Assembly (NCBI RefSeq): GCF_036702645.1
Contig: NZ_JAUBUO010000016.1
Coordinates: forward strand, 28,186-92,185
Direction of reading: 5' to 3'
Length of the DNA: 64,000 bases
Source: Microcoleus sp. Aus8_D1
GTDB taxonomy: Bacteria > Cyanobacteriota > Cyanobacteriia > Cyanobacteriales > Microcoleaceae
Shown: piece after piece, positions 994 through 58,560 of the stretch
Position numbering within the stretch: the first letter of the stretch is position 1
Layout of the letters: each line of letters starts with the position of its first letter
Program-made: the position numbers and the translations under genes
Notes under the pieces: model-generated
Told to the model about the DNA's origin: nothing
What the model saw: only the letters and a program-made list of their open reading frames with translations
The model's database searches: none

Positions 994-1287
994 ATGCAAC
1001 CGATCCGACAAGGCGACGTAATTCTCACCCCGGTACAGCAAATCGCAGGAGACAAAAAACCTCACCTCACCCTCGCCGAAGGTGAAGTCACGGGACATTC
1101 TCACCGCATCATTGAGGGACAAGCTGAACTTTACGAAAAAGACGGTACTCTGTACTTGCGAGTGCTTTCGCCCACAGCTTTATTGAGTCACGAAGAGCAC
1201 CGCGCGATCGCCATTCCTGAAGGTAATTGGATGGTGCGAATTCAGCGGGAATACGAGCCACAAGGTTGGCGGTATGTCTCAGACTAA
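994..1287 (+). CDS. Small hypothetical protein (97 aa), overlaps start of next gene by 14 nt (ATGTCTCAGACTAA)
   Basis: Clean ORF, protein-like composition, translational-coupling-type overlap with 1274..2410. Confidence 0.4.
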   Translation: MQPIRQGDVILTPVQQIAGDKKPHLTLAEGEVTGHSHRIIEGQAELYEKDGTLYLRVLSPTALLSHEEHRAIAIPEGNWMVRIQREYEPQGWRYVSD

Positions 1288-2410
1288 GGTTAAAAAACTT
1301 ACGCCAGCACAAGAAACTCAGATTCCAGTTTATCGCGAAAAGTGGAGGGCGAGATCGCTTTCCACAGGCCCGATCGCTCGATCGCACGCTGCGGAAACCA
1401 TTAAACTAGCTTACAGGGCGATCGGCTTCCCAGCACCAGAAATCATTTTTGTCGATCGTCCTTACCAAGCTGCGAATATCATCGCCAGCCACGCAGACAA
1501 ACCGAGAAGTCACCTCCGCAGCCAATTAGAAAGCAAACTGCGCTGCGAACTCGAAAAACAACTGCTAAGTTGTCTGCGCGGACAACTAGAAAGCCAGCTA
1601 AAACGTCAGCTACAAAATCAACTCGAAAATGAACTTTACACCCAACTGCAAAGCCAACTGTGGAGTCCCCTGCGCGAGCATTTAGCGATGGAAATAGCGA
1701 GCAAATTACCGAACGATTTGAGCGGACAGCGGGCGCGATATTTGCAGTACGCCCATCTCAACAAACAACTAGATAATTGCATTCAACCAGAGTTATGGGC
1801 TGGTAGCGGCAGTTTGTTAGATTTTTGCATTTCCGTGTTGAATTGCACCCACTCCTACGGCAATATCTGGACAATCTTTCAATCCCTTGTTAAGACTTGC
1901 GGCTGGATTTTTCCCTATGACAAAGTTTGTGTTGTGTGCGAAAAGCCGATCGTACTTTCCGCAGACAGCAACCACCGCCTCCACGCAGAAGCAGCACCAG
2001 CCGTACAATTTGCCGACGGTTTTGCAATTTACGCCTATCACGGCGTGATTTTACCCGAATGGTACGGCCGCCTGCACCCCCACGAGTGGCAGTCTAAATG
2101 GATACTCAAGGAACACAACGCAGAGGTTCGGCGGGCGTTAATTCAGGGCATCGGGTGCGATCGTATTTGTCAAGAACTAGCAGCCACAGAATTAGACACT
2201 TGGCAGGAATATACCCTATTAAAAATGGATTTTGAGGACGATTTCGATACCGCTGGGAACCCATTACCAGTTGTTTTGTTAAAAATGACCTGTCCGAGCA
2301 CAGGATTCATTCATGCGCTGCGAGTGCCTCCTGATGTGCGATCGGCTAAAGAAGCAATTCGCTGGGTAAATTGGGGAATAGAGCCTGACGAATTTTCTGT
2401 GCAAACTTAA
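1274..2410 (+). CDS. Paralog family protein: unique N-terminal region plus the shared C-terminal domain
   Basis: C-terminal ~175 aa alignable to 2..544 and 2580..4691 (VCVVCEKP...HAEAAPAVQFADGF...MTCPSTGFIHALRVPPDVRSAKEAIRWVNW). Confidence 0.65.
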   Translation: MSQTKVKKLTPAQETQIPVYREKWRARSLSTGPIARSHAAETIKLAYRAIGFPAPEIIFVDRPYQAANIIASHADKPRSHLRSQLESKLRCELEKQLLSCLRGQLESQLKRQLQNQLENELYTQLQSQLWSPLREHLAMEIASKLPNDLSGQRARYLQYAHLNKQLDNCIQPELWAGSGSLLDFCISVLNCTHSYGNIWTIFQSLVKTCGWIFPYDKVCVVCEKPIVLSADSNHRLHAEAAPAVQFADGFAIYAYHGVILPEWYGRLHPHEWQSKWILKEHNAEVRRALIQGIGCDRICQELAATELDTWQEYTLLKMDFEDDFDTAGNPLPVVLLKMTCPSTGFIHALRVPPDVRSAKEAIRWVNWGIEPDEFSVQT

Positions 2411-2460
2411 AACTCCCCAACCCTGTTTAACAAGTACAGTCCTCGACTCACCAAGATCCA

Positions 2461-2527
2461 AGAAACCGGGTTTTTTCGTTAATCTGCCGGCTGCATCGAA
2501 TAATCTTCGTAAAAAACCCGGTTTCTG
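2461..2527. repeat. Family A hairpin element
   Basis: agaaaccgggttttttcgttaatctgccggctgcatcgaataatcttcgtaaaaaacccggtttct. Confidence 0.8.
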
Positions 2528-2579
2528 GCCACCCGTGCGTAAGTCCTAGTCTGATATTCTCCTAATTTACAACAATTTT

Positions 2580-4691
2580 ATGTCAGAACAACAACCAAAA
2601 CCATCGATAACTTTCAACAGCTTTGCAGACTGGTGCTTGCACAAAGATAGCCTTTGTGAAGCAGCCAAACATACAGTTGAGGAACTGTTAAAGTGGGCGG
2701 GCACTTCTGACATTAATGAAGCGAACCAGATACTATCAAGTAAGAATAAACTAGACCTGCATGGCAATAAAATATCAGACCTCGCACCCCTGCAATCTTT
2801 GACTCATTTAGTTTATCTGGATCTGCATGGCAATAAAATATCAGACCTCACACCGCTGCAATCTCTGACTAATTTGACTTCGCTGTCTCTAAACCACAAT
2901 CAAATATCAGACCTTACATCCCTGCAATCTCTCACGAATTTGACTTCTCTGACTCTGTACAACAATAAAATATCAGACCTCACACCGCTGCAATCTCTGA
3001 CTAATTTGACTTCGCTGTCTCTAGACCACAATCAAATATCAGACCTCACATCCCTGCAATCTTTGACTAATTTGACTTCTCTGACTCTGGGCGAAAATAA
3101 AATATCAGACCTCACACCCCTGCAATCTTTGACTAATTTGATTTTGCTGTTTCTGAACCGCAATAAAATATCAAGCCTCACACCACTACAATCTCTCACG
3201 AGTTTGACTTCTCTGACTCTCGGCCACAATCAAATATCGGACATCACACCCCTACAATCTTTGACTAATTTGACTTTTCTGTCTTTGGGGCGCAATCAAA
3301 TATCAGACATCACGCACTTGCAATCTCTGACTAATTTGACTCGTCTTAATCTGGGCCAAAATCAAATATCAGACATCACAGACTTGCAATCTCTGACTAA
3401 TTTGACCGATCTGGTTCTCGATAGCGATCAAATATCAGACATCACGCACTTGCAATCTCTGACTACTTTGACTCGTCTTAATCTGGGCGAAAATCAAATA
3501 TCAAACATCACATTCCTGCAATTTCTGACTAATTTGACCGATCTGGAACTGCGCGAAAATCAAATATCAGATATAACATCCCTGAAATATCTGACTAATT
3601 TGACTTATCTGAATTTGGCAAACAATCCAATATCAGATATCGCACAGCTACAATATCTCACTCGTTTGAAGGATTTGACTTTAAACCTTACATCCCAACA
3701 CCAAGCTATCATCGAAATTTGCCGTCAAAAGTGGGGAATTCTCGCCAACTCTACCGAACCAATAAAGCACTCCAAAGCCTCAAATGCCCTTAAAACAGTC
3801 TGCGATTGTCTGGATTTAAAAACCCCAGAAATAACTTTTTGCAGTAGCCCGCATGAAGCGTACTTGCGATTAGAAAGGTCTAAACAAAAAGATAATGAGT
3901 TTAAAATACAACTCGATCGACGGCTCGATTCTGCTTGTTTTCCATTTACATTAATAACAGAATTATGGTTGGGACTTTCACGATCGCTCGAATGGGAAAG
4001 ACAGCTAGAACAACAATTGAAATCGATATTCCCCGACTTGTGGCGCGACTATCGGAGATACTCAACAATGTCGATCGTTACTCCAAAATACTTGGCTGAA
4101 GATCTAGCTATGGCTGAATTCTGTGTTTCTGCTTTGGGCATGATTCTTAAACCAGAGTCAGAAAAATTTTTTGAATCTCTAAAGCAGCTTTTAGTAGAAT
4201 GCGGCTGGATTTTTGCGTTTGAGAATGTCTGCTATGTGTGCTCGCGCCCCATCAAACTTTCCCTCGATCGCGAATACCGCCTCCATGCAGAAGGGGAAAG
4301 CGCGATCGAATTTGCCGACGGCTACAAAATCTATTCATATCACGGTGTAACATTACCTGAAAAATACGGACAAATTCACCCCAAAATTTGGGAAGCAAAA
4401 TGGCTTTTAGAGGAAGAAAATGCTGAACTCAGGCGAGTATTAATTCAAGGTATTAGTTATGCTAGAATTTGCTCCGAATTGCAAGCAACCGAATTAGATT
4501 CGTGGCAAGAATACACTTTACTACAAATCGAAAATGCTGATGTTGAGCCGATTCATCTGTTAAAAATGACTTGTCCGAGCACGGGATTCATTCATGCGTT
4601 GCGAGTGCCGCCGGATCTGACATCCGCCCGCGAGGCAATTCGCTGGGTAAATTGGGACATTGACTCAGACGAATTTTCCGTGCAAACTTGA
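2580..4691 (+). CDS. Leucine-rich-repeat protein (~20 tandem 22-aa LRRs, consensus NKISDLTPLQSLTNLTSLxL) fused to the shared C-terminal paralog domain
   Basis: 66-bp periodicity visible in DNA 2750..3660; internalin-like LRR consensus; C-terminal 175 aa match the paralog domain. Confidence 0.8.
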   Translation: MSEQQPKPSITFNSFADWCLHKDSLCEAAKHTVEELLKWAGTSDINEANQILSSKNKLDLHGNKISDLAPLQSLTHLVYLDLHGNKISDLTPLQSLTNLTSLSLNHNQISDLTSLQSLTNLTSLTLYNNKISDLTPLQSLTNLTSLSLDHNQISDLTSLQSLTNLTSLTLGENKISDLTPLQSLTNLILLFLNRNKISSLTPLQSLTSLTSLTLGHNQISDITPLQSLTNLTFLSLGRNQISDITHLQSLTNLTRLNLGQNQISDITDLQSLTNLTDLVLDSDQISDITHLQSLTTLTRLNLGENQISNITFLQFLTNLTDLELRENQISDITSLKYLTNLTYLNLANNPISDIAQLQYLTRLKDLTLNLTSQHQAIIEICRQKWGILANSTEPIKHSKASNALKTVCDCLDLKTPEITFCSSPHEAYLRLERSKQKDNEFKIQLDRRLDSACFPFTLITELWLGLSRSLEWERQLEQQLKSIFPDLWRDYRRYSTMSIVTPKYLAEDLAMAEFCVSALGMILKPESEKFFESLKQLLVECGWIFAFENVCYVCSRPIKLSLDREYRLHAEGESAIEFADGYKIYSYHGVTLPEKYGQIHPKIWEAKWLLEEENAELRRVLIQGISYARICSELQATELDSWQEYTLLQIENADVEPIHLLKMTCPSTGFIHALRVPPDLTSAREAIRWVNWDIDSDEFSVQT

Positions 4692-4757: not shown

Positions 4758-5321
4758 ATGGTAGTTGCAGCCAAGTTAACGATTTCTATTGCAGAGTTTT
4801 TGCAGTTGCCAGAAACTAAACCGGCAAGCGAGTACATCGACGGTCAAATTTCTCAAAAACCCATGCCGCAAGGAAAACATAGCAAACTTCAAGATGAGTT
4901 ATTGTCCGGGATTAATCGGGTGGGAAAACCTGGCAAACTAGCTCATGCTTTTCCCGAGTTGCGCTGTACGTTTGGGGGTCGATCGATCGTTCCCGATATT
5001 GCTGTTTTTGAATGGTCGAGAATTCCTCTTGATGAAGATGGAGAAATTGCCAACCGTATTGAAGTTGCACCGGATTGGATAATAGAAATTCTGTCACCAG
5101 ACCAATCTCCGAATCAGGTAATTAAGAAAATTGTTTTTTCGATTAATCACGGCACTAAATTGGGTTGGTTTGCAGATCCGGGCGATAAATCAGTAATAGT
5201 TTTTCAGCCGAATCAACTGCCTGAATTTAAATCAGATACCGATATTTTACCTGTTCTCAGCGTATTGGGTGATTGGCAGTTATCCGCAGCCGAGTTGTTT
5301 AGTTGGTTGAAGATTAATTGA
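4758..5321 (+). CDS. Uma2-family (DUF820) putative restriction-endonuclease-like protein
   Basis: N-terminal ISIAEFLQLPETKPASEYIDGQI and PD-(D/E)xK-like PDIAVF...EIxEILSP core typical of cyanobacterial Uma2 proteins. Confidence 0.75.
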   Translation: MVVAAKLTISIAEFLQLPETKPASEYIDGQISQKPMPQGKHSKLQDELLSGINRVGKPGKLAHAFPELRCTFGGRSIVPDIAVFEWSRIPLDEDGEIANRIEVAPDWIIEILSPDQSPNQVIKKIVFSINHGTKLGWFADPGDKSVIVFQPNQLPEFKSDTDILPVLSVLGDWQLSAAELFSWLKIN

Positions 5322-5334
5322 TTTAATAAGCCTC

Positions 5335-5660
5335 GCGCCGGACACGGCAGTGCCGTTTCCCTACTCGATTATGTTGTTAAAAGCAGAACTCCACGCCGGA
5401 CGCGGCAGTGCCGTTTCCCTACCCGATTATGTTGTTAAAAGCAGAACCCTACGCCGGACACGGCAGTGCCGTTTCCCTACCCGATTATGTTGTTAAAAGC
5501 AGAACCCCACGCCGGACGCGGCAGTGCCGTTTCCCTACCCGATTATGTTGTTAAAAGCAGAACCCTACGCCGGACACGGCACTGCCGTTTCCCTACCCGA
5601 TTATGTTGTTAAAAGCAGAACCCCACGCCGGACATGGCAGTGCCGTTTCCCTACAGAAAC
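5335..5660. repeat. Tandem direct repeat, ~60-bp unit x ~5.5 (cgccggacacggcagtgccgtttccctacccgattatgttgttaaaagcagaaccccA)
   Basis: Read directly; units abut with no spacers; a few point differences between copies. Confidence 0.9.
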
Positions 5661-6027
5661 TGCTATCTTGGCAAAAATCTTAATCCATAAAACTCTAATC
5701 AATATTCGCCCTGTGCCAGTTAAAATGGTGGAATGCCCAAACCATCAATTTAGCAAAAACTGTTAATAACATAAGAAAGAAGCCCACCTTCAGTCAAAGG
5801 TGAGCTAAATTCATGCCAGCTTACCGAAAGCTAGGCAATCGGGTCTCTAAGCCGATTGACGTAAAAGTTGAGAAAAAGATCCAAATCTTCCGGAAAAACT
5901 TATCCCCAACAATTAAGCTTCAGTTTACCCAAGCAGATCGGGAAAATTTCGCACACAGCGATGTTCCCCTGAAAGTGGGGAAATGCTGGGGCTTTATTTT
6001 GGCCAGCAATCCCCAATCTCAAAGGGT

Positions 6028-6873
6028 TTAAGCATCGTGATCGTGAGCGAAGCGGCGGAAGAGGAAGTCTAGGGCGTAGTTCCGCAAGTTGTAATATTCG
6101 GGATCTTCCATCATTTGTACCCGATCGCGCGGACGAGGAAAAGGAATCTCCAGAACCTCGCCAATCGTTGCTGACGGGCCGTTGGTCATCATCACGAGTC
6201 GATCGGCCAAAAACAGCGCTTCGTCAATATCGTGAGTAATCATCAACACCGTACAGCGGTGATCGTTCCAGATTTTCAGCAACTCTTCCTGCAATTCTTC
6301 CTTGGTAATTGCGTCCAAAGCACCGAAAGGTTCGTCTAAAATCAGCACCTTGGGGCGAATTGCTAAGGCGCGGGCGATGGACACCCGCTGCTTCATCCCC
6401 CCAGAAATTTGCGGAGGTCTTTTCTCAGAAGCTTCTGTCAGTCCCACCATCGCCAAATGCTCTTTGACGATCTCATTTTTCTCGGCCTGCGACTTCTCAG
6501 GAAATACAGCGTTAACGGCAATATAAACATTCTCAAACACCGTGCGCCAAGGCAGCAAAGCGTAACCCTGAAACACTACCATGCGATCGGGGCCCGGCTT
6601 CACAATCCGCTGCCCGTTAATCGACACTGTGCCGTCGCTGGGATGGCTAAAACCGGACACCATATTTAATAGTGTGGACTTCCCACAGCCCGAGTGTCCG
6701 ATCAGAGTAATAAACTCTCCCTCAGCTACGGTCAAGTTAACGTTTTCTAATGCCCTGTAACCGTTTGGATAGACTTTATAAACATTGTCCATCACCAAAA
6801 AAGGCTGGCGGCGATCTTTCTTAGACTTGATTTGGGTTTTGGTGCTTGTCTGGTTGACAGAAGTATTAATCAT
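6028..6873 (-). CDS. nrtD/cmpD: Nitrate/bicarbonate ABC transporter ATP-binding subunit (NrtD/CmpD type)
   Basis: Walker A GHSGCGKST, signature ISGGMKQRVSIARAL, Walker B ILILDEPFGALD; last gene of the A-B-C-D operon. Confidence 0.85.
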   Translation of the reverse strand: MINTSVNQTSTKTQIKSKKDRRQPFLVMDNVYKVYPNGYRALENVNLTVAEGEFITLIGHSGCGKSTLLNMVSGFSHPSDGTVSINGQRIVKPGPDRMVVFQGYALLPWRTVFENVYIAVNAVFPEKSQAEKNEIVKEHLAMVGLTEASEKRPPQISGGMKQRVSIARALAIRPKVLILDEPFGALDAITKEELQEELLKIWNDHRCTVLMITHDIDEALFLADRLVMMTNGPSATIGEVLEIPFPRPRDRVQMMEDPEYYNLRNYALDFLFRRFAHDHDA

Positions 6874-17725: not shown

Positions 17726-18094
17726 CTATTTCTTAAGGCTAAACTCAGCAGGCAATGGTTGTAATTTTTTAGCAATATCTAACAGATAATCTTTGGCTAA
17801 GCTATCGAGATTTGTGCTGTTTCTTGATAAATATGAACTTAAAAATATAGGTTTAGAAAGCCCTTTAAGTGTGACCCCTGCTATCTCATAATTTAATAAA
17901 TATGGATAAATATCTTGAAAAACGGCATCTGCTAAATTGCAATCGAATAGCTCGACAAATGCAAAAATAACTTGTCTAGTATCAAAAAAATAACAACTTC
18001 CTAGGAGTTCCTGTTCTGGACTGATGTAAAAAGTTTGCTTTGTACGGTGGCCAGAACTTTTCCATAACAGTTCTCCCATATTTTGCCTGCACAA
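17726..18094 (-). CDS. Hypothetical 122-aa ORF in the same frame as, and separated by a single TGA from, the upstream GIY-YIG ORF
   Basis: Minus-strand frame continuity checked: TGA (18098..18100), GTT, TTG ...; may be the C-terminal part of an interrupted gene. Confidence 0.35.
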   Translation of the reverse strand: MCRQNMGELLWKSSGHRTKQTFYISPEQELLGSCYFFDTRQVIFAFVELFDCNLADAVFQDIYPYLLNYEIAGVTLKGLSKPIFLSSYLSRNSTNLDSLAKDYLLDIAKKLQPLPAEFSLKK

Positions 18095-18097
18095 AAC

Positions 18098-18589
18098 TCA
18101 AATATGTAACTGCTGGTTTTCATATACACCAGCAACAAAACCCCGAAATAAATCGTAGGGTTCTCTGGGAATCGTTTGACCATTAAGCGATTTGTATTTT
18201 ATTGAAGGAAAAAGAGGCTGGCTGGGAAGCTTAAGCAATCGCTGCAACTCAGAAAACCGGGTAATGGTTTTGGGCAAATATTTTTTGACTCTCCCATAGT
18301 TCAGTAAGGGATTAAGTTCTTCGATATATTGACACTCTAACTCGTTCAATTCAGAAACGGAAGCTAGAATATATTTAATAACAATTTTATCCAATCCTTT
18401 TCTAGCAAGTTGCTTGTAGCGGTGATGGCTCGCTCCTGCCCAACGTTTGCGTAAGTTCTTGGCTTGACCAATATAAAATAATTGTTCGCGTTCACCGACC
18501 ACGAAATAAATACCTGGATGGTCAGGAAGCTGGTGGCGAAGACGTAGGGTTAACTGCCCAGACATAGGATCTAGACTACTTGGATTCAT
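18098..18589 (-). CDS. GIY-YIG nuclease family protein (start chosen at MNPSSLDP to avoid overlap with upstream gene)
   Basis: GIYFVVGEREQLFYIGQAKNLRKRW... E...N motif order typical of GIY-YIG. Confidence 0.6.
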   Translation of the reverse strand: MNPSSLDPMSGQLTLRLRHQLPDHPGIYFVVGEREQLFYIGQAKNLRKRWAGASHHRYKQLARKGLDKIVIKYILASVSELNELECQYIEELNPLLNYGRVKKYLPKTITRFSELQRLLKLPSQPLFPSIKYKSLNGQTIPREPYDLFRGFVAGVYENQQLHI

Positions 18590-18611
18590 AATTTTATTCC
18601 CTGTTGCTAAG

Positions 18612-19643
18612 TTATCTTGATTGTACCTGAAACTCAGTAGATTTAACCACATTCATCCCCGCCTGCGCGAATCTTAAAAAAGCCGCATCTGCTTGTTCAG
18701 TAAAATCAACAACACCAGGAACAACCACCGGCGAAGTACAATCTTCCAACAAATAAACCTTCCTAGCCAACATAGAATCCCGCGCCACAATTTCAGTCAA
18801 CAAATCATCAATCGTCCAAGCAACACAGTGACTCTTCGCTTGTCCCGCAATAATTACCGCATCAAACTCTAACAACTTATCAATAAACGCAGCATTTTTA
18901 TGAGCAATCGGATTTCCGTCGGCCCCATCTAACACTTCCGGCTGCAAAACCGAATAGTTTTCAGTTAAGGGATTCCCACCTTTAATCTCAAAAAGTGCTT
19001 GACTGTTGCGCGCCATACTGTGAAAAAATATCGCTTCTTCCACGGCGGAAACCAGGGCGTGTCCGATGCCGCCCAACATCGAGTGATAGGGCCAAATTGT
19101 CAAGGGAAATTTGCCATTGTCGCTGAGTTTCTGCACGTAGTGAAGGCAGTGTTTTTGTAGTTCCGCATAATTCCCGCCCGCGATGCTATCGGCGACGGCT
19201 GGGTTGACTTTCCAAATTCCTTGCTGCACATCTTCTAGAGTAATTAATGTGGCGGCGGGAATGGGGTTTTCGCCTGCATCATCGATCCAAAATATGGGAT
19301 GGAAAATTTGCATAGCGGTGTGCGTATCCATCGTCGGCGCAATCGTGGTAATTGCGTTTAAGTTGCGATAGATGAATTCGCACAGCCGCAAGTTGTCATC
19401 AACAGCACCGCTACCGGAACGCCCGCCGACAAATAGTTCAAATTCCGGTACGCAAAATGTATTTTGGGCATCAATTATTAGCAAACAAATTCGCTTTTCG
19501 TCGCTAGCTGCTGGCTGAATACTATGTTTCCAGGCCCAATTATTAGCTTCAGTCGCTCTTTCTTGATAGGGAACTCGCCAGATTTCACTGATTTTATGGG
19601 CGTCGAAATATTCTGGAATTGGGAGTTGTGCTTTTGTGGTCAT
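18612..19643 (-). CDS. Isochorismatase-family / cysteine hydrolase-like protein with N-terminal extension
   Basis: CLLIIDAQNTF (DxQxxF) and a C-terminal catalytic-Cys region (AKSHCVAWTIDD) characteristic of isochorismatase-like hydrolases. Confidence 0.6.
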   Translation of the reverse strand: MTTKAQLPIPEYFDAHKISEIWRVPYQERATEANNWAWKHSIQPAASDEKRICLLIIDAQNTFCVPEFELFVGGRSGSGAVDDNLRLCEFIYRNLNAITTIAPTMDTHTAMQIFHPIFWIDDAGENPIPAATLITLEDVQQGIWKVNPAVADSIAGGNYAELQKHCLHYVQKLSDNGKFPLTIWPYHSMLGGIGHALVSAVEEAIFFHSMARNSQALFEIKGGNPLTENYSVLQPEVLDGADGNPIAHKNAAFIDKLLEFDAVIIAGQAKSHCVAWTIDDLLTEIVARDSMLARKVYLLEDCTSPVVVPGVVDFTEQADAAFLRFAQAGMNVVKSTEFQVQSR

Positions 19644-22161: not shown

Positions 22162-22368
22162 CCGTAGGGGCGGGTTCACCGAAATCTCGAACGCAAATCC
22201 AACAATCTGATAAACCCGCCCTGCCCCCGCCCAATTTTACATCAACATTTTATCCAATAAATTAAGGGTAGATTTGTATTTGCGATCGGGTGGGGGCGGG
22301 TTTACGAGATGATTCATTTTCGCCATAGAGGGTTGGCGAACCCGCCCCTACGCGGATTGCGGTTTTCG
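22162..22368. repeat. MITE-like element, family B, full copy
   Basis: About 85 percent identical over ~195 bp to 7088..7285, same 17-bp terminal inverted repeats. Confidence 0.8.
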
Positions 22369-22378
22369 ACATTCCCAT

Positions 22379-22972
22379 TTACGTTTCTGTTTCTGTTTCT
22401 GTTTCAAATTGAACGCCTTCATACAAAAGTTCGATCGGCAAATCAAACCCAATACTTGATAAAGTAATAATCTCCCCAGCAGTGTAAGCATAGTAAAGCC
22501 ACATTCTGCCCTCTCCGCGACAGTAACGTTCAGCGGAGATTTTTTCTGAGTCAATCAAGATATACTCTTGCAAGCTCGGAATTTTCAGGTAACAAGTGAA
22601 TTTTTCATCCCGATCTTTAGCACTTGTACTGGGGGAGAGAACTTCCACAATGATTTTAGGATTCTGAATAAACTTGCGGGAATTCAAGTCTTGAGAATCG
22701 CAACTGACTATGACATCAGGATAGTAGTAACGGCTTTGAAAACTGACTTGCAATTTCACATCTGACACGTTCATCCGACAACCTCTGGAACGCAGATGCG
22801 GGCGTAATGCAGTATAAAAGTTAAGTGCAAGATCGTTATGGGGAATTGTACTTCCCGTCATGGCAAAAACTTCGCCGTTGACATATTCGTGGCGAATCTC
22901 TTGTTGAGCTTCCCATTCGAGATATTCCTCAACGGTCATTTTTTGGGGTGCTTGGGGAATAGCTATCATCAC
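22379..22972 (-). CDS. Uma2-family (DUF820) putative endonuclease
   Basis: MTVEEYLEWEAQQEIRHEYVNGEVFAMTGSTIPHNDLALN typical Uma2 N-terminus; C-terminal ETETETET comes from a GTTTCT hexamer run. Confidence 0.75.
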   Translation of the reverse strand: MMIAIPQAPQKMTVEEYLEWEAQQEIRHEYVNGEVFAMTGSTIPHNDLALNFYTALRPHLRSRGCRMNVSDVKLQVSFQSRYYYPDVIVSCDSQDLNSRKFIQNPKIIVEVLSPSTSAKDRDEKFTCYLKIPSLQEYILIDSEKISAERYCRGEGRMWLYYAYTAGEIITLSSIGFDLPIELLYEGVQFETETETET

Positions 22973-23023
22973 AAAATTTTTGTTAATGTTACTTTGATTA
23001 TAGCATTAGATATTGCTGTAGCC

Positions 23024-23443
23024 TCACCCGCACTCACTTGACCGATCGATTAAATTCAATCTATTTTCATACCCCCGCATTATCTTCTGTAATACGTACC
23101 TTAACCTTTCAAAGTCAGCATCTTCTAAAGAGAAAGTAATTGCAACCTCATCGCATTCTAGAAGAGTTATAGTATCGGAACCAAAGCGAACAGTAAATCC
23201 CTCGCGACTAAGAGTAACCCAATCGATGCCTACATCTTCTGTCCAGTATTCATCGTCGAATTCTGCATAGATGTTTTTTCTGTTAGGAACAGTCTCTTCT
23301 TCAGATTCTTCTTGTCGTGTCAGGATGAAATAATGTTCGCCCCCCTTAGCTTCAGAAAAACCCACATACAAATTGGCTTCAATAGCCTCAACGCAAGGGG
23401 CAAAAAATTCAGTTTTCATAATTTTAAAAATCCCCTTCATCAA
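23024..23443 (-). CDS. Hypothetical acidic 139-aa protein, 20-nt overlap with pnkp 3' end (possible third cassette gene)
   Basis: ORF directly downstream of pnkp on the same strand with overlap; no recognisable motif. Confidence 0.45.
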   Translation of the reverse strand: MMKGIFKIMKTEFFAPCVEAIEANLYVGFSEAKGGEHYFILTRQEESEEETVPNRKNIYAEFDDEYWTEDVGIDWVTLSREGFTVRFGSDTITLLECDEVAITFSLEDADFERLRYVLQKIMRGYENRLNLIDRSSECG

Positions 23444-24428
23444 CTTGAAATACAGTCAATCCCAACGACCTCCACATATCAACAACTTGCTGGCGATCGT
23501 CCAATACAAACTTAACATTATATTGTCCTGCAATATGCTGCTGATAGATTTCCTCCTTCATAATCGCATCCTTCCTCATATCCCCAGTTTTCCGCATATA
23601 GAGGCCTGCATAATTGACCTCGTATTGCCGCAACCATTGTTCAGTCTGAGGTTGACAGTCATCGGTTCTACCCGATACTACGATAATATTAACGCTAGAC
23701 TGCCACTTGCGGACGGTATCTAAGACGGGCTGATTCGGTAAATCGCGATCGCACTTTGAAGCATCAAAAGGATTTCTACCATTGAGAAGCGCTAATGTAC
23801 CGTCCATATCCACAAGAATTGCATCCGGCAAATCCGGGTTGTATTCCGGCGGCGCAACCGGAACCCGCACGTACTTATTGTACATTTTCATTATCACATC
23901 TTTACCCACCGAATTAAGTCTTTTCAAATCCCGTTTAATACACTCCTCCACCGGAACTTGCAGGAAAGAATCATTAACTTCCACGATGGCTTTACCCTTA
24001 ACCAACTCCTTGATATGCTCGATGTGAGGCCCGAAATTAGTATCATCAACAATCACGTGCTTGCCACTTTCCAAAGCCATCAGAATAATCGTATCTCTCA
24101 ACTGCACAATAAACTTTTCATTCGCCGGAGACCAATGAGAAGCGTGAGCCATTTCTCGAAGTAAATCTTTATTGCTACGCACCCACCGTGCAGGTTCAGA
24201 CAGCAGCAATTCTCTCGCAAATTGAGATTTTCCAGAAGCAGGTAAGCCGACAAGTACAATAACTCTTTTCATGGTAAATTGGTAATTGGGCATTGGGCAT
24301 TGGCTTGCGCAGGGCATTGGCTTGCGCAGGGCATTGGGCATTGGGAATAGTATTTCACCGTAGGGTGCGTCGCCGCCGAAAAGCTCTAAATCAAGCTCGA
24401 CAATCTCATAGCGACGCACCTTAAACAA
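23424..24428 (-). CDS. pnkp: Polynucleotide 5'-kinase/3'-phosphatase, phage T4 Pnkp-like
   Basis: N-terminal P-loop kinase (VLVGLPASGKSQFA) plus C-terminal HAD phosphatase (LVDMDGTLA ... MRKDAIMKEEIY ... VLDDRQQVVDMWRSLGLTVFQVDEGDF); strong similarity in order and wording to T4 Pnk, including the terminal GDF. Confidence 0.85.
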   Translation of the reverse strand: MFKVRRYEIVELDLELFGGDAPYGEILFPMPNALRKPMPCASQCPMPNYQFTMKRVIVLVGLPASGKSQFARELLLSEPARWVRSNKDLLREMAHASHWSPANEKFIVQLRDTIILMALESGKHVIVDDTNFGPHIEHIKELVKGKAIVEVNDSFLQVPVEECIKRDLKRLNSVGKDVIMKMYNKYVRVPVAPPEYNPDLPDAILVDMDGTLALLNGRNPFDASKCDRDLPNQPVLDTVRKWQSSVNIIVVSGRTDDCQPQTEQWLRQYEVNYAGLYMRKTGDMRKDAIMKEEIYQQHIAGQYNVKFVLDDRQQVVDMWRSLGLTVFQVDEGDF

Positions 24429-24480
24429 TAGTTCGCTTGGAGTTCTACTTTATATGACTGCAAACCATCGATTAGTGTAT

Positions 24481-25566
24481 TTACAAACCTAAATTGATAT
24501 AATCCAAACCCAATAACTCCTCTATCTTATGAATCGTAACATCGCGGAGAGCTTCTTTCACTCCGGCAACCCTGCGAGCCCGCAAAGAAAACAAAATCCC
24601 AGAATACGGCAAATGCTTGACAGCTAACGCAAAATCTTTCTGAACTTCGATATGTTCGTGCTGTCGGTAAACCTCCTCGATTTCTTGAACTAACAATTCA
24701 TATTTACTCTTAACTTTTTGATACAAGTCAATCCACTCGGGAAAATAAGCTAAAAACTCTTCTCCTTCATTAGTCAAAACAATTTCGATCATCCGCCGCG
24801 TCGAAAACCCTTCGCGAAGGTGGGAAATCGCCACATATTGCGGAGACTTAACCTTAACTCGGTTGAAGTTAGCATCGCAGATAATATACCCTTCCGAATC
24901 CATCGGATCTAAATGTTGAGCCGCTTCGATAACTTCTTTCCAGCTAGTTAAAGGATAGGATGCTACCAACTCCCAGCCATATTTATTTGCCCAGATACTG
25001 GGGTCAGTTTCTAGAAGTGTTTGAGTGTTGCGAACCCCGTGCAGGACAATTTGATTATTTTTTTGCTGCACAACTATTCTATTGTAAGGCGTCATCAACT
25101 CAAAGATAAAACACTCGTCGGTGGCTTCCGGTAATTGATATCCCAATTCTTGCCAGACTTTCCAAAATAGTTCGGCAAAGCTGAATCCAAAACCGTTAAC
25201 TTCACCCGCTGCATCGGGAGTGCCGCTAGATTGCACTCTCCATTCTCCGTTATAAAAATACAGTACAGTTAGAGAACCGTCTAGTTTTTCGTAAACTTTG
25301 GCGCGACTCCAATCAATTGCTGCGGCGTGGCCTTCCCCGTAGTTAAAAAATTTGTCGTAGGGATAAGAAACAATCTGCCAATCTTGAGACTCATCTAAAA
25401 TAATGCCCCGGCACTGCTGGACTATTTTTTCGCCCAGCGGGGATTCTATCTGCGAGTATTTCAGACAGACTAAATCGGGATATTGGCGGTGGCGGGTAAC
25501 TTTGATATGATAAGTTTCGCACAAAGTTTCTAATCCGTGCTGGCGTAAATACTCTTGCAGTTCCAC
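24481..25566 (-). CDS. rnl: ATP-dependent RNA ligase, T4 Rnl1 family
   Basis: Nucleotidyltransferase motif I KLDGSL at ~residue 94 (T4 Rnl1 KEDGSL at 99), CRGIILDE, DKFFNYGEG, EGYIICD...VKVKSPQYVAISH matching Rnl1 motifs; 361 aa (T4 Rnl1 374 aa). Confidence 0.8.
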   Translation of the reverse strand: MELQEYLRQHGLETLCETYHIKVTRHRQYPDLVCLKYSQIESPLGEKIVQQCRGIILDESQDWQIVSYPYDKFFNYGEGHAAAIDWSRAKVYEKLDGSLTVLYFYNGEWRVQSSGTPDAAGEVNGFGFSFAELFWKVWQELGYQLPEATDECFIFELMTPYNRIVVQQKNNQIVLHGVRNTQTLLETDPSIWANKYGWELVASYPLTSWKEVIEAAQHLDPMDSEGYIICDANFNRVKVKSPQYVAISHLREGFSTRRMIEIVLTNEGEEFLAYFPEWIDLYQKVKSKYELLVQEIEEVYRQHEHIEVQKDFALAVKHLPYSGILFSLRARRVAGVKEALRDVTIHKIEELLGLDYINLGL

Positions 25567-25743
25567 GTTCGACTCCTAAATTACTCGCCTTCTCTATCTT
25601 ATCTCTTACTGCATATTTCCGTGCATTTGTAAATAAAATTTAAACTGGCTTTTTTCCTGAATGCCTGTTGTGGCTTTTGTATTTTGGAGTTGTGTTGTAA
25701 ATTAAGTGAACACGGTTCAGTGCAAAACTAGACTGTTTCGACA

Positions 25744-26319
25744 TTGAGGACAAAAATAGTGAACAATAAATTATTACTTTTGGCGACTTCTGCCTGCGTA
25801 TTGACTGCTTTGGTACCTGTATCGCAAGTTTTTGGTGCGGGATCATTGCCGCAGATGCTGGCGGAAACAAAGCCTGTTGCTCAAGCTGATGCTGCTGTGC
25901 CGGTCAGTGAAATTTTGCCAAAGTTAAAAGGTAAAACACAAGTGCCAATTTTTATCCCCAGCTTGGTTCCTGTTTCGCAGAAACTTTACTATCAAACCCA
26001 AAGTAAACCCGACAGCTATAGTGTTTCTATGGAGTTTACAGCAGATTGCAAAGGTACGGGAGCTTGCACTCTTGGGGAAATTAGAGGTCAAAAAGGTGGT
26101 GAGTTTTCTACTAAAATGGAAGGGGTAACTAAGACGTTAAAAACTGTTCAACTTGCGGGCGGAGTGAAAGGAAATTTTCACAACGGTTGCGGGGCTTACT
26201 GTACGGCAAGTCTTGAGTGGAAAACTCAGGGTTTTATGTATACTGTAGCCCTTAAAAACGGACTGGAAGCAGATGTAATTAAGATTGCAAATTCTGCTAT
26301 TCAAGCTGGGAAACGCTAA
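25744..26319 (+). CDS. Secreted hypothetical protein (signal peptide) with Cys-containing C-terminal domain
   Basis: N-terminal signal-like LLLLATSACVLTALVP; C-terminal ~140 aa homologous to C-terminus of 26491..27525 (KGKTxVPIFxP ... CxGxxCT ... NxCGAYCTASxEW ... VxxIxNSAxQAG[KQ]R). Confidence 0.55.
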   Translation: MRTKIVNNKLLLLATSACVLTALVPVSQVFGAGSLPQMLAETKPVAQADAAVPVSEILPKLKGKTQVPIFIPSLVPVSQKLYYQTQSKPDSYSVSMEFTADCKGTGACTLGEIRGQKGGEFSTKMEGVTKTLKTVQLAGGVKGNFHNGCGAYCTASLEWKTQGFMYTVALKNGLEADVIKIANSAIQAGKR

Positions 26320-26490: not shown

Positions 26491-27525
26491 TTGCGCTTAC
26501 CTACTGAGAGGGAAATTAGGATGAGGGGAAGATGGCTATTTGGGGCGATTTTTGCTGGTGTGGGGACTGCTTTGACGATCGCACTTTTGACGCCCAACTC
26601 CGCGCTAGCACGTCCAGAAGTGTCTGTGACCGAAATTCGCTGGTTTAATTATACCTCCAAAGATGGCTGGCAATCCATCCAATTTATTGTGCCCGATCGC
26701 AATACTGCACAATCTGTTAGCAGCCGCAAGCTGCGCCCCTACGACGTTCATATTGCCAAGATGTTTGAGATTTCGCGTTTTTTGTGCGATCGCGATCGGA
26801 CTTCTGAAGGTTACAATTGGTCTTACCAAGCCGAAAATGGCAACATTGACATGGGAAGCTTCAAAATTAGCTGCCAGAGAGCCCGCTCCACAGCCGCAAC
26901 TTACGGATTAGGCAAACCGGAAAATACAGTCATTCGCCGCAACTTCGACCTTAACAAGGGTCGCCCTTCTATTGCCGTAGAAAAATATTATATTCCCACT
27001 CTGAACGTTAGTAAAAATAGAGTTTTGCAGTGGATAGATTTTGTCCAAAAGTTCCCCCCAATTCCCGATAAGTCAGGTGCAAATCAAGCTAAAAATCGTT
27101 TTCCTGCGAACAACATCTTTCAGCAAATCAAAGGCAAAACGCGAGTCCCTATTTTCCTCCCCAATATACTGCCTTTATCTGACACTCAGCAACTAGATTT
27201 TGATGTGCAAGCGGGTTCCCACGGCTACATTGTTGAAATGTATTTAGGCAAAGGATGCCGTGGAGGAGCCTGTACTTTTGGCAGCATCGAAGCGAAAAGA
27301 GATGAACCGTTTTCGCCTCCTTCACAATTGCCCAGAGATATTTATAGAAGCATTGAATTGGCAGGCGGAATCAGAGGAATTTATTTCAATAGTTGCGGTG
27401 CTTACTGCACTGCTTCTGTGGAGTGGCAAAGGCTGGGGGTGCTGTATCGAGTAAGTGTCAAAAATGGACGGCAGTCAGATGTTGTTGCGATTGTAAATTC
27501 TGCACTTCAAGCAGGACAACGTTAA
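26491..27525 (+). CDS. Secreted hypothetical protein, paralog of 25744..26319 in its C-terminal domain
   Basis: TM/signal segment WLFGAIFAGVGTALTIALL; shared C-terminal domain with conserved Cys residues. Confidence 0.55.
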   Translation: MRLPTEREIRMRGRWLFGAIFAGVGTALTIALLTPNSALARPEVSVTEIRWFNYTSKDGWQSIQFIVPDRNTAQSVSSRKLRPYDVHIAKMFEISRFLCDRDRTSEGYNWSYQAENGNIDMGSFKISCQRARSTAATYGLGKPENTVIRRNFDLNKGRPSIAVEKYYIPTLNVSKNRVLQWIDFVQKFPPIPDKSGANQAKNRFPANNIFQQIKGKTRVPIFLPNILPLSDTQQLDFDVQAGSHGYIVEMYLGKGCRGGACTFGSIEAKRDEPFSPPSQLPRDIYRSIELAGGIRGIYFNSCGAYCTASVEWQRLGVLYRVSVKNGRQSDVVAIVNSALQAGQR

Positions 27526-57199: not shown

Positions 57200-58560
57200 T
57201 GTGTTGCCATTGCCAATACATTAATGCTACCATCATCAGCAAGGAGACAAGCAAATGAGAACAGCTTACCAGTACAAACTTCGACCAACAAAATACCAAA
57301 CCACAGAGCTAGACAGGTGGTTGTCAATGTTGTGCGCCCAGTACAATTACTTGTTGGCCGATCGATTCAACTGGTACGAGCAAAATCGCTCTCCTGTTAA
57401 CGCTTGTCCATTGGTTTGTCATCTTCCTGAGTTAAGGGACAACCCAGACTATTTCAGCCAGAAAAAGACTCTACCCCAACTCAATAAAACTCATCCTTGG
57501 TACTCCCAAATCAATTCACAAGTACTTCAGGATGCAGTCAAACGAGTTAAGGTAACATTTGACAGATTTCTCAAAGGCGACAGTAACGGTAAACGCAGTG
57601 GCCAACCAAGGTTTAAATCTCGCAACCGCTACAAAACCTTTACCTATCCCCAGATGAAAGAGGGATGCTTGCAGGGTAATCGGATTAACTTACCGATGTT
57701 CGGTAAAGTCAAGGTAGTTCTACATCGCCCCATACCAGACGGGTATCAGGTGAAAACGGCTTCCGTTACCAAAAAAGCTGATGGATATTACGTAACGCTT
57801 TCACTCGAAGATAAAGCAGTACCGGAAATCAAGCCAGATTTCAATCCAGATAACATTACTGGGATTGATATGGGTTTGAAAGAATTATTGACAACTTCTC
57901 TTGGTGAAACCGTTGCTATTCCCCAACATTACCGTAAAGCTCAAAAACGCTTGCGAACGATCCAGAAGCGCGTGTCACGCCGTAAAAAAGGCAGTGCCCG
58001 CAGGCAGAAAGCAGTCAAGCAACTGGGGAAACAACACAAAAAAGTTGCAGACAAACGGAAAGATTTTCACTTCAAGACAGTGAATTGGTTGCTATCAAAA
58101 TATGACGTAATTGCACATGAGAATTTAAACGTCAAAGGGCTAGCTCGAACCCGATTGGCTAAATCTGTGTTGGATGCTGGGTGGTCAAGCTTTCTGTTGA
58201 TACTGGCCAGCAAAGCCGTAAATGCTGGTTTGTCGGTAGTCCCAGTCAGCGCTCACAATACCTCACAAAATTGCTCTGATTGTGGCGAGAAAGTACCCAA
58301 AAAACTGCATATTCGTTGGCATGACTGTCCTCATTGTGGGTGCTCTCTTGACCGCGATCGTAATGCAGCTATTAATATCAAAAACAGAGCGGTAGGGCAT
58401 TCCGTTCTTAAAGCTCAGTTAACGTCCGTTAGCGAAGCGTCTCCGAAGGAGATAGCAATCGCTGGAGTCACTGAGAAGCCCGCATCATATCTGTACTCAG
58501 ATTGATGTGGGAGTATGTCACTTATAGGTTATCTAGAAAAAACTTGTGTCCGCTTTTGAG
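57200..58560 (+). mobile_element. Solo-TnpB insertion sequence (approximate ends); 3' ~150 nt expected to encode the omegaRNA/right end
   Basis: Inferred from TnpB gene; ends not defined by sequence reading. Confidence 0.4.
57255..58505 (+). CDS. tnpB: IS200/IS605-family TnpB (OrfB, IS1341-type RNA-guided endonuclease)
   Basis: RuvC-I ([11 protein letters not shown]), RuvC-II ([10 protein letters not shown]), zinc finger CSDCG...CPHCG, RuvC-III (RDRNAAINI); no tnpA adjacent. Confidence 0.85.

Follow-up and report, generated by a model that had tools for sequence, protein, structure and literature searches.

The RNA repair enzymes Pnkp and Rnl1 of bacteriophage T4 are textbook proteins, usually seen as instruments of phage counter-defence. 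Here, genes of the same two families form a conserved cellular operon on a cyanobacterial chromosome, which raises the question of what they do there and of whether the small gene that follows them belongs to the same system. We addressed this question in a stretch of 64,000 nucleotides from Microcoleus sp. Aus8_D1 (contig NZ_JAUBUO010000016.1, positions 28,186 to 92,185; this whole stretch is hereafter called the window). An earlier note, made from the DNA sequence, had described an RNA ligase gene, a polynucleotide kinase/phosphatase gene (pnkp) and a third small open reading frame (ORF), here called ORF3, and all three ORFs were confirmed on the minus strand where that note had placed them (Table 1). 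Our analysis indicates that the locus very likely consists of two unrelated things: a conserved ligase-pnkp RNA-repair operon, and an orphan Imm10-type immunity gene that is present in a minority of strains.

The first gene encodes an Rnl1-family RNA ligase

The ligase gene is the first of the pair and starts at a GTG codon behind AGGAG. Its product matched the Pfam model RNA_lig_T4_1 (PF09511) with an expectation value (E) of 6e-21 and 75.7 bits (gathering cutoff 28.3). It also matched PHROG 562, the T4 RnlA family, with an E of 1.5e-44 over residues 16-340, reaching profile position 360 of 377, while the pairwise alignment with T4 Rnl1 ends at residue 286. When the PDB was searched by sequence (E <= 1), entries of T4 Rnl1 (2c5u/5tt6, E 8e-9) were the only ligases matched.

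The nucleotidyltransferase motifs I (K94-L-D96-G97), III, IV and V are all present in the protein (E156, E225-G226 and K238/K240), as are the Rnl1-specific N-terminal elements, with T4 R54, K75 and F77 conserved as R53, K72 and F74. Residue conservation was assessed in 10 cyanobacterial orthologues with 56-83% identity to the window protein, and all 11 of the 11 residues considered (R53, K72, F74, K94, D96, G97, E156, E225, G226, K238 and K240) were invariant. They align to R54, K75, F77, K99, D101, G102, E159, E227, G228, K240 and K242 of T4 Rnl1, residues that we take to be essential in the T4 enzyme. The motifs KLDGSL, CRGI, DKFFN and EGYI...K.K, which the earlier note had read in the ligase, are present and invariant in the same orthologues. 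The comparison with Rnl1 RNA ligase models (HMM/BLAST) that it had proposed was run, and the nucleotidyltransferase lysine motif aligns to that of T4 Rnl1.

Structure prediction added little here. The AlphaFold2 model of the ligase, built from a 10-sequence alignment, had a mean predicted local distance difference test score (pLDDT) of 58.4 and was confident only in a helical domain at residues 250-350. A Foldseek search of the PDB with this poor model returned nothing at E < 1 and was discarded as a model artefact. Neither the window ligase nor Geminocystis P0112 had an exact-sequence match on record.

The second gene encodes a T4-type Pnkp

The product of the second gene carries a kinase domain that matched the P-loop model AAA_33 (E 3.7e-12) and a phosphatase domain that matched Pfam HAD_PNKP (E 4.8e-53, 179.6 bits against a cutoff of 27.6). 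Over its full length it matched PHROG 505 (2.7e-85, profile positions 1-295 of 295). The closest solved structures were Capnocytophaga Pnkp1 (4xrp, 3e-51), followed by T4 Pnkp (1ltq, 2e-43), and residues 1-282 are colinear with residues 10-312 of 4xrp and 1-301 of 1ltq, through the terminal GDF. This alignment bears out the earlier observation that the C-terminal half reads almost as T4 Pnkp down to its last residues.

The motifs of both domains align with those of T4 Pnkp. For the kinase, these are the P-loop GLPASGKS, NKD..R (D35/R38) and KR (the R126 equivalent); for the phosphatase, DMDGT (D165/D167), GR (R176), SGR (R213), RKD..K and DDR (D277/D278). It should be noted that the mechanically called ORF of 334 amino acids is over-extended. 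Indeed, homology to every relative begins at M53 (ATG at 24272), so the gene is taken to start there and to encode 282 amino acids, and the 52 codons upstream of M53 are a read-through of heptamer repeats.

The matches in Pfam, PHROG and the PDB thus support what had been proposed, namely an Rnl1-family ligase next to a P-loop kinase/HAD phosphatase. With the catalytic motifs of both proteins intact, the further proposal of a T4-like pair, in which Pnkp heals RNA ends and an Rnl1-type enzyme seals them, stands as well, and both enzymes look catalytically competent as judged from their sequences.

The pair is a conserved cyanobacterial module

A homologue search with the ligase returned 1402 relatives, the best 120 of which were inspected for length, identity and organism. 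These 120 were full-length (~361 amino acids) and 56-93% identical to the window protein, and the organisms named among the relatives listed were all cyanobacteria: Microcoleus, Kamptonema, Gomphosphaeria, Spirulina, Waterburya and Geminocystis. A species-level scan, with one genome per species, yielded at least 146 ligase loci, and the best 80 were examined (L-numbers below denote such loci of homologues in other genomes). In a tblastn survey, 74 of these 80 loci had pnkp as the next gene downstream of the ligase gene. At two loci (L057 and L060) a contig edge follows the ligase, and at three (L080, L086 and L087) the ligase has no adjacent Pnkp.

When the flanking ORFs of 14 divergent loci were clustered, the ligase and Pnkp genes were the only ones in common. 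The Waterburya pair, for example, has a histidine kinase gene on one side and DUF212/polyprenyl synthase genes on the other, and a third partner is not present there. The ligase-pnkp pair is therefore a widely conserved two-gene module of cyanobacteria, found in at least 146 species-level genomes. One locus in a metagenome-assembled genome labelled Actinomycetota (L076, JBLNEP010000118.1) encodes a ligase and Pnkp 77-82% identical to the Microcoleus pair, among neighbours of cyanobacterial type; it is probably a binning contaminant and gives no evidence for the pair in Actinomycetota.

The spacer between the two genes was compared in 75 loci. It ranged from 5 to 389 nt and contained 0-16 heptamer units, with 5-7 nt in distant lineages versus 83-389 nt in Microcoleus/Tychonema loci, where the heptamers are variable and the hairpin is not conserved. 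The short spacer of the distant lineages indicates that the ancestral unit was a tight two-gene operon, and the spacer is a repeat-expansion hotspot. In the window it contains runs of CCCAATG-type heptamers and two perfect 17-nt tandem units (about 24275-24348), as well as a 13-nt inverted repeat with arms at 24361-24373 and 24411-24423. The heptamer motif CCCAATG recurs in the window at 35211-35224. The hairpin was considered as a conserved attenuator and rejected, as its arms are exact in only 3 of the 75 loci. A consensus scan of positions 22300-25800 for promoters and terminators performed no better than on shuffled sequence, and it showed no minus-strand terminator within the operon.

Predicted role of the pair

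By analogy with T4, the HAD domain of Pnkp would turn the 2',3'-cyclic phosphate or 3'-phosphate of a broken RNA into a 3'-OH, and the P-loop kinase would phosphorylate the 5'-OH end. The ligase would then be adenylylated at Lys94, pass its adenosine monophosphate (AMP) to the 5'-phosphate, giving AppRNA, and seal the 3'-OH/5'-PO4 break. These healing and sealing steps are modelled on the established T4 pathway; our own analysis bears on family identity, intact active sites and operon linkage. The likeliest substrates would be stem-loops such as tRNA anticodon loops, and Rnl1-type ligases have been described as suited to breaks in the loops of stem-loops, tRNA anticodon loops among them (PMC4408790).

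Candidate triggers include the RNases of the cell's own toxin-antitoxin systems, stress RNases, ribotoxins delivered by competitors and nucleases triggered by phages, and it is plausible that the pair serves recovery from endogenous or exogenous RNase damage. In Anabaena, rtcB and hen1-pnkP, which are other RNA repair genes, are induced at a late stage of translational stress, at which tRNAs undergo cleavage (PMC8421152). The cognate ribotoxin that the earlier note had considered did not materialise, as Pfam and PADLOC revealed no PrrC, RloC or HEPN gene in the 64-kb window. RloC was reported in 2008 to be absent from 37 cyanobacterial genomes (PMC2610378).

Rather than counter a dedicated ribotoxin, the same chemistry might serve a routine role in end maintenance, such as the recycling of tRNA and rRNA fragments left by toxin-antitoxin or stress RNases under translational stress, or, through Pnkp, the processing of DNA ends. 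The broad and vertical conservation of the pair, its housekeeping contexts and the failure to find a linked nuclease all fit such a role. The late induction of rtcB and hen1-pnkP in stressed Anabaena (PMC8421152) can be counted on the same side. So can the activity of T4 Pnkp on DNA ends. However, the ligase occurs without an adjacent Pnkp in 3 of 80 loci, and the pair is patchily distributed among cyanobacteria, a pattern seen more often with accessory or conflict functions. We regard routine maintenance as possible but doubtful.

Comparison with known RNA-repair systems

The pair can be set against three characterized systems. It resembles T4 Pnkp/PseT and Rnl1/RnlA, which counter the anticodon nuclease PrrC, in its enzyme families, domain orders and predicted chemistry. 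The T4 pnkp and rnl1 genes are unlinked, whereas the window pair is cellular, chromosomal, operonic and conserved in cyanobacteria. In addition, the window ligase aligns only weakly with T4 Rnl1 (E 8e-9) and scores far under the cutoff for an RnlA equivalog, and unlike in the T4 pathway, no PrrC/RloC-type nuclease was found near the pair.

The rnl-pnkp1 operon of Capnocytophaga is likewise a two-gene bacterial operon of a ligase and a T4-type pnkp, and its Pnkp1 is the nearest solved relative of the window Pnkp (PMC4411300). Its Rnl, however, resembles the ligase domain of bacterial Pnkp (Rnl4-type; PMC4411300), whereas the window ligase is of the Rnl1 type; indeed, the Capnocytophaga Rnl (4xru chain) was not matched by the window ligase at E <= 1 in the PDB sequence search. 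The Capnocytophaga hen1 gene lies far from the rnl-pnkp1 operon (PMC4411300). No Hen1/methyltransferase domain was found among the ORFs scanned in the 64-kb window.

The bacterial Pnkp-Hen1 systems of Clostridium thermocellum and Anabaena variabilis also represent cellular heal-and-seal repair, and also in cyanobacteria. They differ from the window pair in that a single trifunctional polypeptide, in which the phosphatase is of the calcineurin type and the ligase an Rnl4, is used together with the Hen1 methyltransferase. The NCBIfam model bacter_Pnkp gave a sole, weak match, to the kinase region of the window Pnkp (E 2e-4).

The two repair genes are already correctly auto-annotated in public records, and current understanding is not overturned. 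The added value is modest and lies in recognizing the pair as a widely conserved two-gene module and ORF3 as an orphan Imm10-type gene that is linked to Rhs proteins elsewhere. The pair offers a tractable entry to the purpose of cellular RNA repair in bacteria rich in toxin-antitoxin RNases, as its enzymes are easily assayed.

ORF3 follows pnkp in only a few strains

Homologues of ORF3 begin at MKTEFF, which sets its start at ATG 23419, 4 nt past the pnkp stop, and its length at 131 amino acids. The 139-amino-acid ORF overlapping the pnkp stop by 20 nt, as first described, does not agree with this start. The ratio of nonsynonymous to synonymous substitution rates (dN/dS) was 0.15-0.41 in comparisons with five copies linked to Pnkp and one that is unlinked, so ORF3 is a selected, genuine coding gene. 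The comparison with the L090 copy is invalid, as a 2-codon insertion there breaks the gapless comparison.

A full ORF3 stands beside Pnkp in only 4 of the 80 loci (L018, L052, L066 and L075), and stumps of 27-33 codons are found in two more (L032 and L045). The gene is missing from ~95% of cassettes (about 70 of 75 intact ones), including those of strains whose ligase is 97% identical to that of the window, and from all divergent lineages examined. In DNA alignments, ORF3 appears as a clean presence/absence segment. One border lies immediately behind the TAA of pnkp, and the other a short way ahead of a conserved block with TATAAT that precedes the next gene, Uma2. Its occurrence at the 3' end of pnkp is confined to a minority of Microcoleus/Tychonema strains forming one shallow clade, and the insertion was probably a single event. 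The window copy has a C-terminal extension of six residues, RSSECG (23024-23044); homologues end in ...NLID, and the codon that follows NLID is a stop in L018 and L052 versus CGG in the window.

Copies of ORF3 also exist without ligase and Pnkp. One of them, in Aerosakkonemataceae, adjoins a ParE toxin-antitoxin pair, and another, at L007, lies behind an apparent truncated Uma2 fragment. A 60-amino-acid ORF upstream of the L007 homologue was considered as a Pnkp remnant and rejected, as it looks by eye like a truncated Uma2 N-terminus. Neither a second ORF3 copy nor a toxin with an HAE..PCxxC tip was found in the 64-kb window.

ORF3 is most likely an orphan immunity gene of the Imm10 type

Homology of ORF3 to the Imm10 superfamily is well supported by its relatives. 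Among its close relatives, 5 of 12 matched Pfam Imm10 (best 9e-5). A profile search of 1.84 billion representative proteins retrieved 147 relatives, and 65 of the 80 that were scanned with Pfam were Imm10 at E <= 1e-3 (best 1e-22). In the part of their work that treats this family, Zhang et al. (2012, PMC3482391) pair Imm10, as an immunity protein, with deaminase toxins of the Pput_2613 type and place it in heterogeneous polyimmunity loci, and cyanobacteria are not among the taxa listed there for it.

The gene context of ORF3 relatives in other genomes points the same way, and three independent loci are the most informative. At Desertifilum L003, at L090/L091 and at L094, a homologue directly follows the gene for an Rhs-type or giant protein, the longest of which has 6827 amino acids. 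The last ~415 residues of the three large proteins are 69-85% identical, and all three carry the Rhs PSGY boundary, beyond which comes a tip with HAExD...PCxTC. The tip that scored best matched Pfam Toxin-deaminase over positions 5-143 of 146 with an E of 4e-4, under the curated cutoff. A homologue search with the tip of the Desertifilum Rhs toxin gave zero matches, and this tip is classified by its motif and the sub-threshold Toxin-deaminase match only.

At L094, the ORF3 homologue is flanked by two Pfam-positive Imm10 genes. The resulting tandem of three Imm10-type genes (4763-6176: Pfam-positive, ORF3-family, Pfam-positive) lies downstream of the Rhs-type protein, the tip of which differs from those of L003 and L090 mainly in its last ~140 residues; the arrangement resembles a polyimmunity array that follows the diversification of the toxin tip. 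The Rhs array of Desertifilum sp. SIO1I2 (L003, 1-8327) starts with an Rhs gene with a deaminase-like tip and an ORF3-family immunity gene. These are followed by an orphan Rhs C-terminal cassette (3074-4006) with another tip and its own putative immunity gene of 135 amino acids, and then by a second full Rhs gene.

Like Imm10 proteins, ORF3 is small (~125 amino acids) and cytoplasmic, and its relatives are Imm10 in Pfam. As in the published Imm10 loci, members of its family either directly follow Rhs toxins that end in deaminase-like tips or belong to Imm10 arrays. Unlike typical Imm10 proteins, ORF3 belongs to a divergent clade that was found here only in filamentous cyanobacteria (Oscillatoriales), and in the window it is appended to an RNA-repair operon, with no toxin within 64 kb. 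As the window holds no such toxin, ORF3 is read as an orphan, and it is most likely a polymorphic-toxin immunity gene. The cognate toxin of the family in other Oscillatoriales would be the deaminase-like (HAE...PCxxC) tip of giant Rhs proteins, and ORF3 would guard the cell against Rhs toxins that neighbouring filaments deliver. Its expression probably comes from read-through of pnkp, and a role in RNA repair is not expected. The Rhs toxins and Imm10-like genes described here would make up a cyanobacterial toxin/immunity pair, and orphan copies such as ORF3 would mark inter-strain conflict in mat-forming Microcoleus.

Several observations weigh against this division of the locus into a repair operon and an immunity gene. 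The ligase scored 54.6 bits against NCBIfam TIGR02308, the T4 RnlA equivalog model, and because this is far under the cutoff of 242.25, it is on this score a family-level relative and not an equivalent of T4 RnlA, despite the label 'T4 RnlA family RNA ligase' that its orthologues carry at NCBI. Its C-terminal specificity domain shows only moderate similarity to that of T4 Rnl1. The window ORF3 itself is sub-threshold for Pfam Imm10 (PF15588; E 0.04), with 14.7 bits where 28.6 are required, so that the assignment draws on homology by transitivity and on the gene context elsewhere, and the deaminase assignment of the Rhs tip is sub-threshold too. The AlphaFold models of the ligase and of ORF3 (the latter built with AlphaFold2 from a 12-sequence alignment, mean pLDDT 46.6) were both too poor to provide evidence on fold. 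The 4-nt junction between pnkp and ORF3 is found in every strain that has ORF3 there, as a functional partnership would show, although these strains are closely related.

Could ORF3 and the repair pair act together?

One way to connect the two parts of the locus is a two-layer defence, in which the Rhs tip neutralised by ORF3 damages RNA, for instance by editing or breaking tRNA, and neutralisation and repair are co-expressed in one transcription unit against contact-dependent attack from neighbouring filaments. This would be the first link of a polymorphic-toxin immunity gene with an RNA heal-and-seal system. The insertion point of the immunity gene is indeed precisely the 3' end of the repair operon, the flanks gather conflict genes by strain (Uma2, GIY-YIG, a YafQ-type toxin-antitoxin pair and SocA_Panacea), and the Rhs tip may act on DNA or on RNA. 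However, this tip is deaminase-like (HAE..PCxxC), and base deamination makes no breaks for Pnkp and the ligase to mend. Moreover, the association of ORF3 with the repair genes is limited to one shallow clade and probably goes back to a single insertion, most strains with the repair pair have no ORF3, and the toxin-linked ORF3 copies come without the repair pair. A two-layer defence is thus very unlikely.

Still less probable is a three-gene cassette, in which ORF3 would be a subunit, specificity factor or regulator of the ligase/Pnkp machine, analogous to Hen1 in Pnkp1-Rnl-Hen1; the earlier note had offered the acidic ORF3 as a possible cassette component. There is precedent for a third protein, as Pnkp1-Rnl needs one (PMC4411300), and the 4-nt junction with the pnkp stop, seen also in L004/L066, L018, L052, L092 and L093, implies that ORF3 is co-transcribed. 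Against the cassette, ORF3 is missing from about 70 of 75 intact cassettes and from all divergent lineages, its homology is to Imm10, and members of its family occur without ligase and Pnkp, beside Rhs toxins or in Imm10 arrays. The three-gene reading is largely refuted by this distribution, and treating ORF3 as an orphan immunity gene averts a false 'third subunit' annotation.

Table 1 Features of the ligase-pnkp-ORF3 locus (positions in the window)
Feature	Position	Strand	Evidence
Rnl1-family ATP-dependent RNA ligase, 361 aa	24481-25566	-	Pfam PF09511, PHROG 562, T4 Rnl1 structures
Ligase-Pnkp spacer, hypervariable, non-coding	24273-24480	.	Repeats and inverted repeat
T4-type polynucleotide 5'-kinase/3'-phosphatase (Pnkp), 282 aa	23424-24272	-	AAA_33, HAD_PNKP, PHROG 505
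ORF3, divergent orphan immunity gene, most likely of the Imm10 family, 131 aa	23024-23419	-	Transitive homology, context elsewhere

Gene neighbourhood and phage relatives

The neighbours of the locus in the window include genes for a P-type ATPase, a C39 peptidase, hemC, a trypsin-like protease, glycogen synthase, ABC transporters and sensor kinases, and the synteny of this neighbourhood is shared with other Microcoleus genomes. These housekeeping flanks agree with the chromosomal copy assumed from the start. The other origin that had been entertained, a prophage or mobile-element remnant recently acquired from a T4-like phage, has in its favour that both protein families are mostly phage-annotated (PHROG 562 and 505), that 1124 (ligase) and 3209 (Pnkp) of 50,697 phage records had matches, and that one ligase orthologue, from Geminocystis, is labelled 'phage protein'. 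It is nevertheless the least likely of the readings considered here: the best phage identities are only 33-36% for the ligase (phages of Pseudomonas, Pseudoalteromonas and Vibrio) and 46% for Pnkp, with no cyanophage among the top phage matches listed for either protein, whereas orthologues in several named cyanobacterial genera are 56-93% identical and sit in syntenic housekeeping contexts within the Oscillatoriales; no phage structural or integrase genes were found flanking the pair in scans of the window, and the guanine-cytosine (GC) content of the pair (42-43%) falls inside the range seen in the sequence around it. PADLOC recognised none of the ligase, Pnkp and ORF3.

The neighbourhood had also been described as nuclease-rich. 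The Uma2 and GIY-YIG genes on which this description drew were confirmed, but the two paralogues with signal peptides match no family and the rest of the neighbourhood is housekeeping. The nuclease-rich appearance is incidental, because Uma2 is multi-copy and follows Pnkp only within the Microcoleus clade. The window has two Uma2-family (PD-(D/E)XK-like) genes, at 22379-22972 and 4758-5321. The first, which follows ORF3, has an (ET)n repeat at its end and matches the PADLOC candidate system PDC-S03; upstream of it, a conserved block, CTAATGCTATAATCAAAGTAAC (22988-23009), may be its promoter. Uma2 follows Pnkp in about 50 loci of the Microcoleus clade and never in distant lineages.

The two paralogues (25744-26319 and 26491-27525) have N-terminal signal or transmembrane segments and share a cysteine-rich C-terminal domain of ~150 amino acids. 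Neither had a Pfam or PADLOC match, and we saw no sign of a nuclease identity in them. Six loci from more distant Oscillatoriales have a gene for a homologue of these proteins upstream of the ligase, in divergent orientation.

The slot occupied by GIY-YIG in the window (18098-18652, within 17726-18652) is strain-variable: L004 has an unrelated ORF of 162 amino acids there, and L092/L093 have a gene for 76 amino acids together with a YafQ-type toxin. At L092, a SocA_Panacea gene lies upstream of the ligase. The variable GIY-YIG slot, YafQ and SocA_Panacea indicate that small conflict or mobile genes accumulate on the flanks of the operon.

Other features of the window

Further from the locus, positions 30692-33328 encode an 878-amino-acid bacterial homologue of the eukaryotic Major Vault Protein (MVP). 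It combines Vault repeats and the MVP shoulder domain with a long coiled-coil tail, and its Pfam matches are all strong. A reverse transcriptase gene (RVT_1, 465 amino acids), followed by an RNase III gene and a gene for an NYN-domain nuclease, occupies 37334-40222, and a low-GC stretch at 36-37 kb (GC 0.37) adjoins the reverse transcriptase. Two adjacent DUF6745 proteins are encoded at 1274-4691, one of them fused to a long leucine-rich-repeat array (703 amino acids). An IS605-family OrfB/TnpB gene with a Cas12f-like TNB domain (57255-58505) marks a mobile element ~32 kb from the ligase-pnkp pair.

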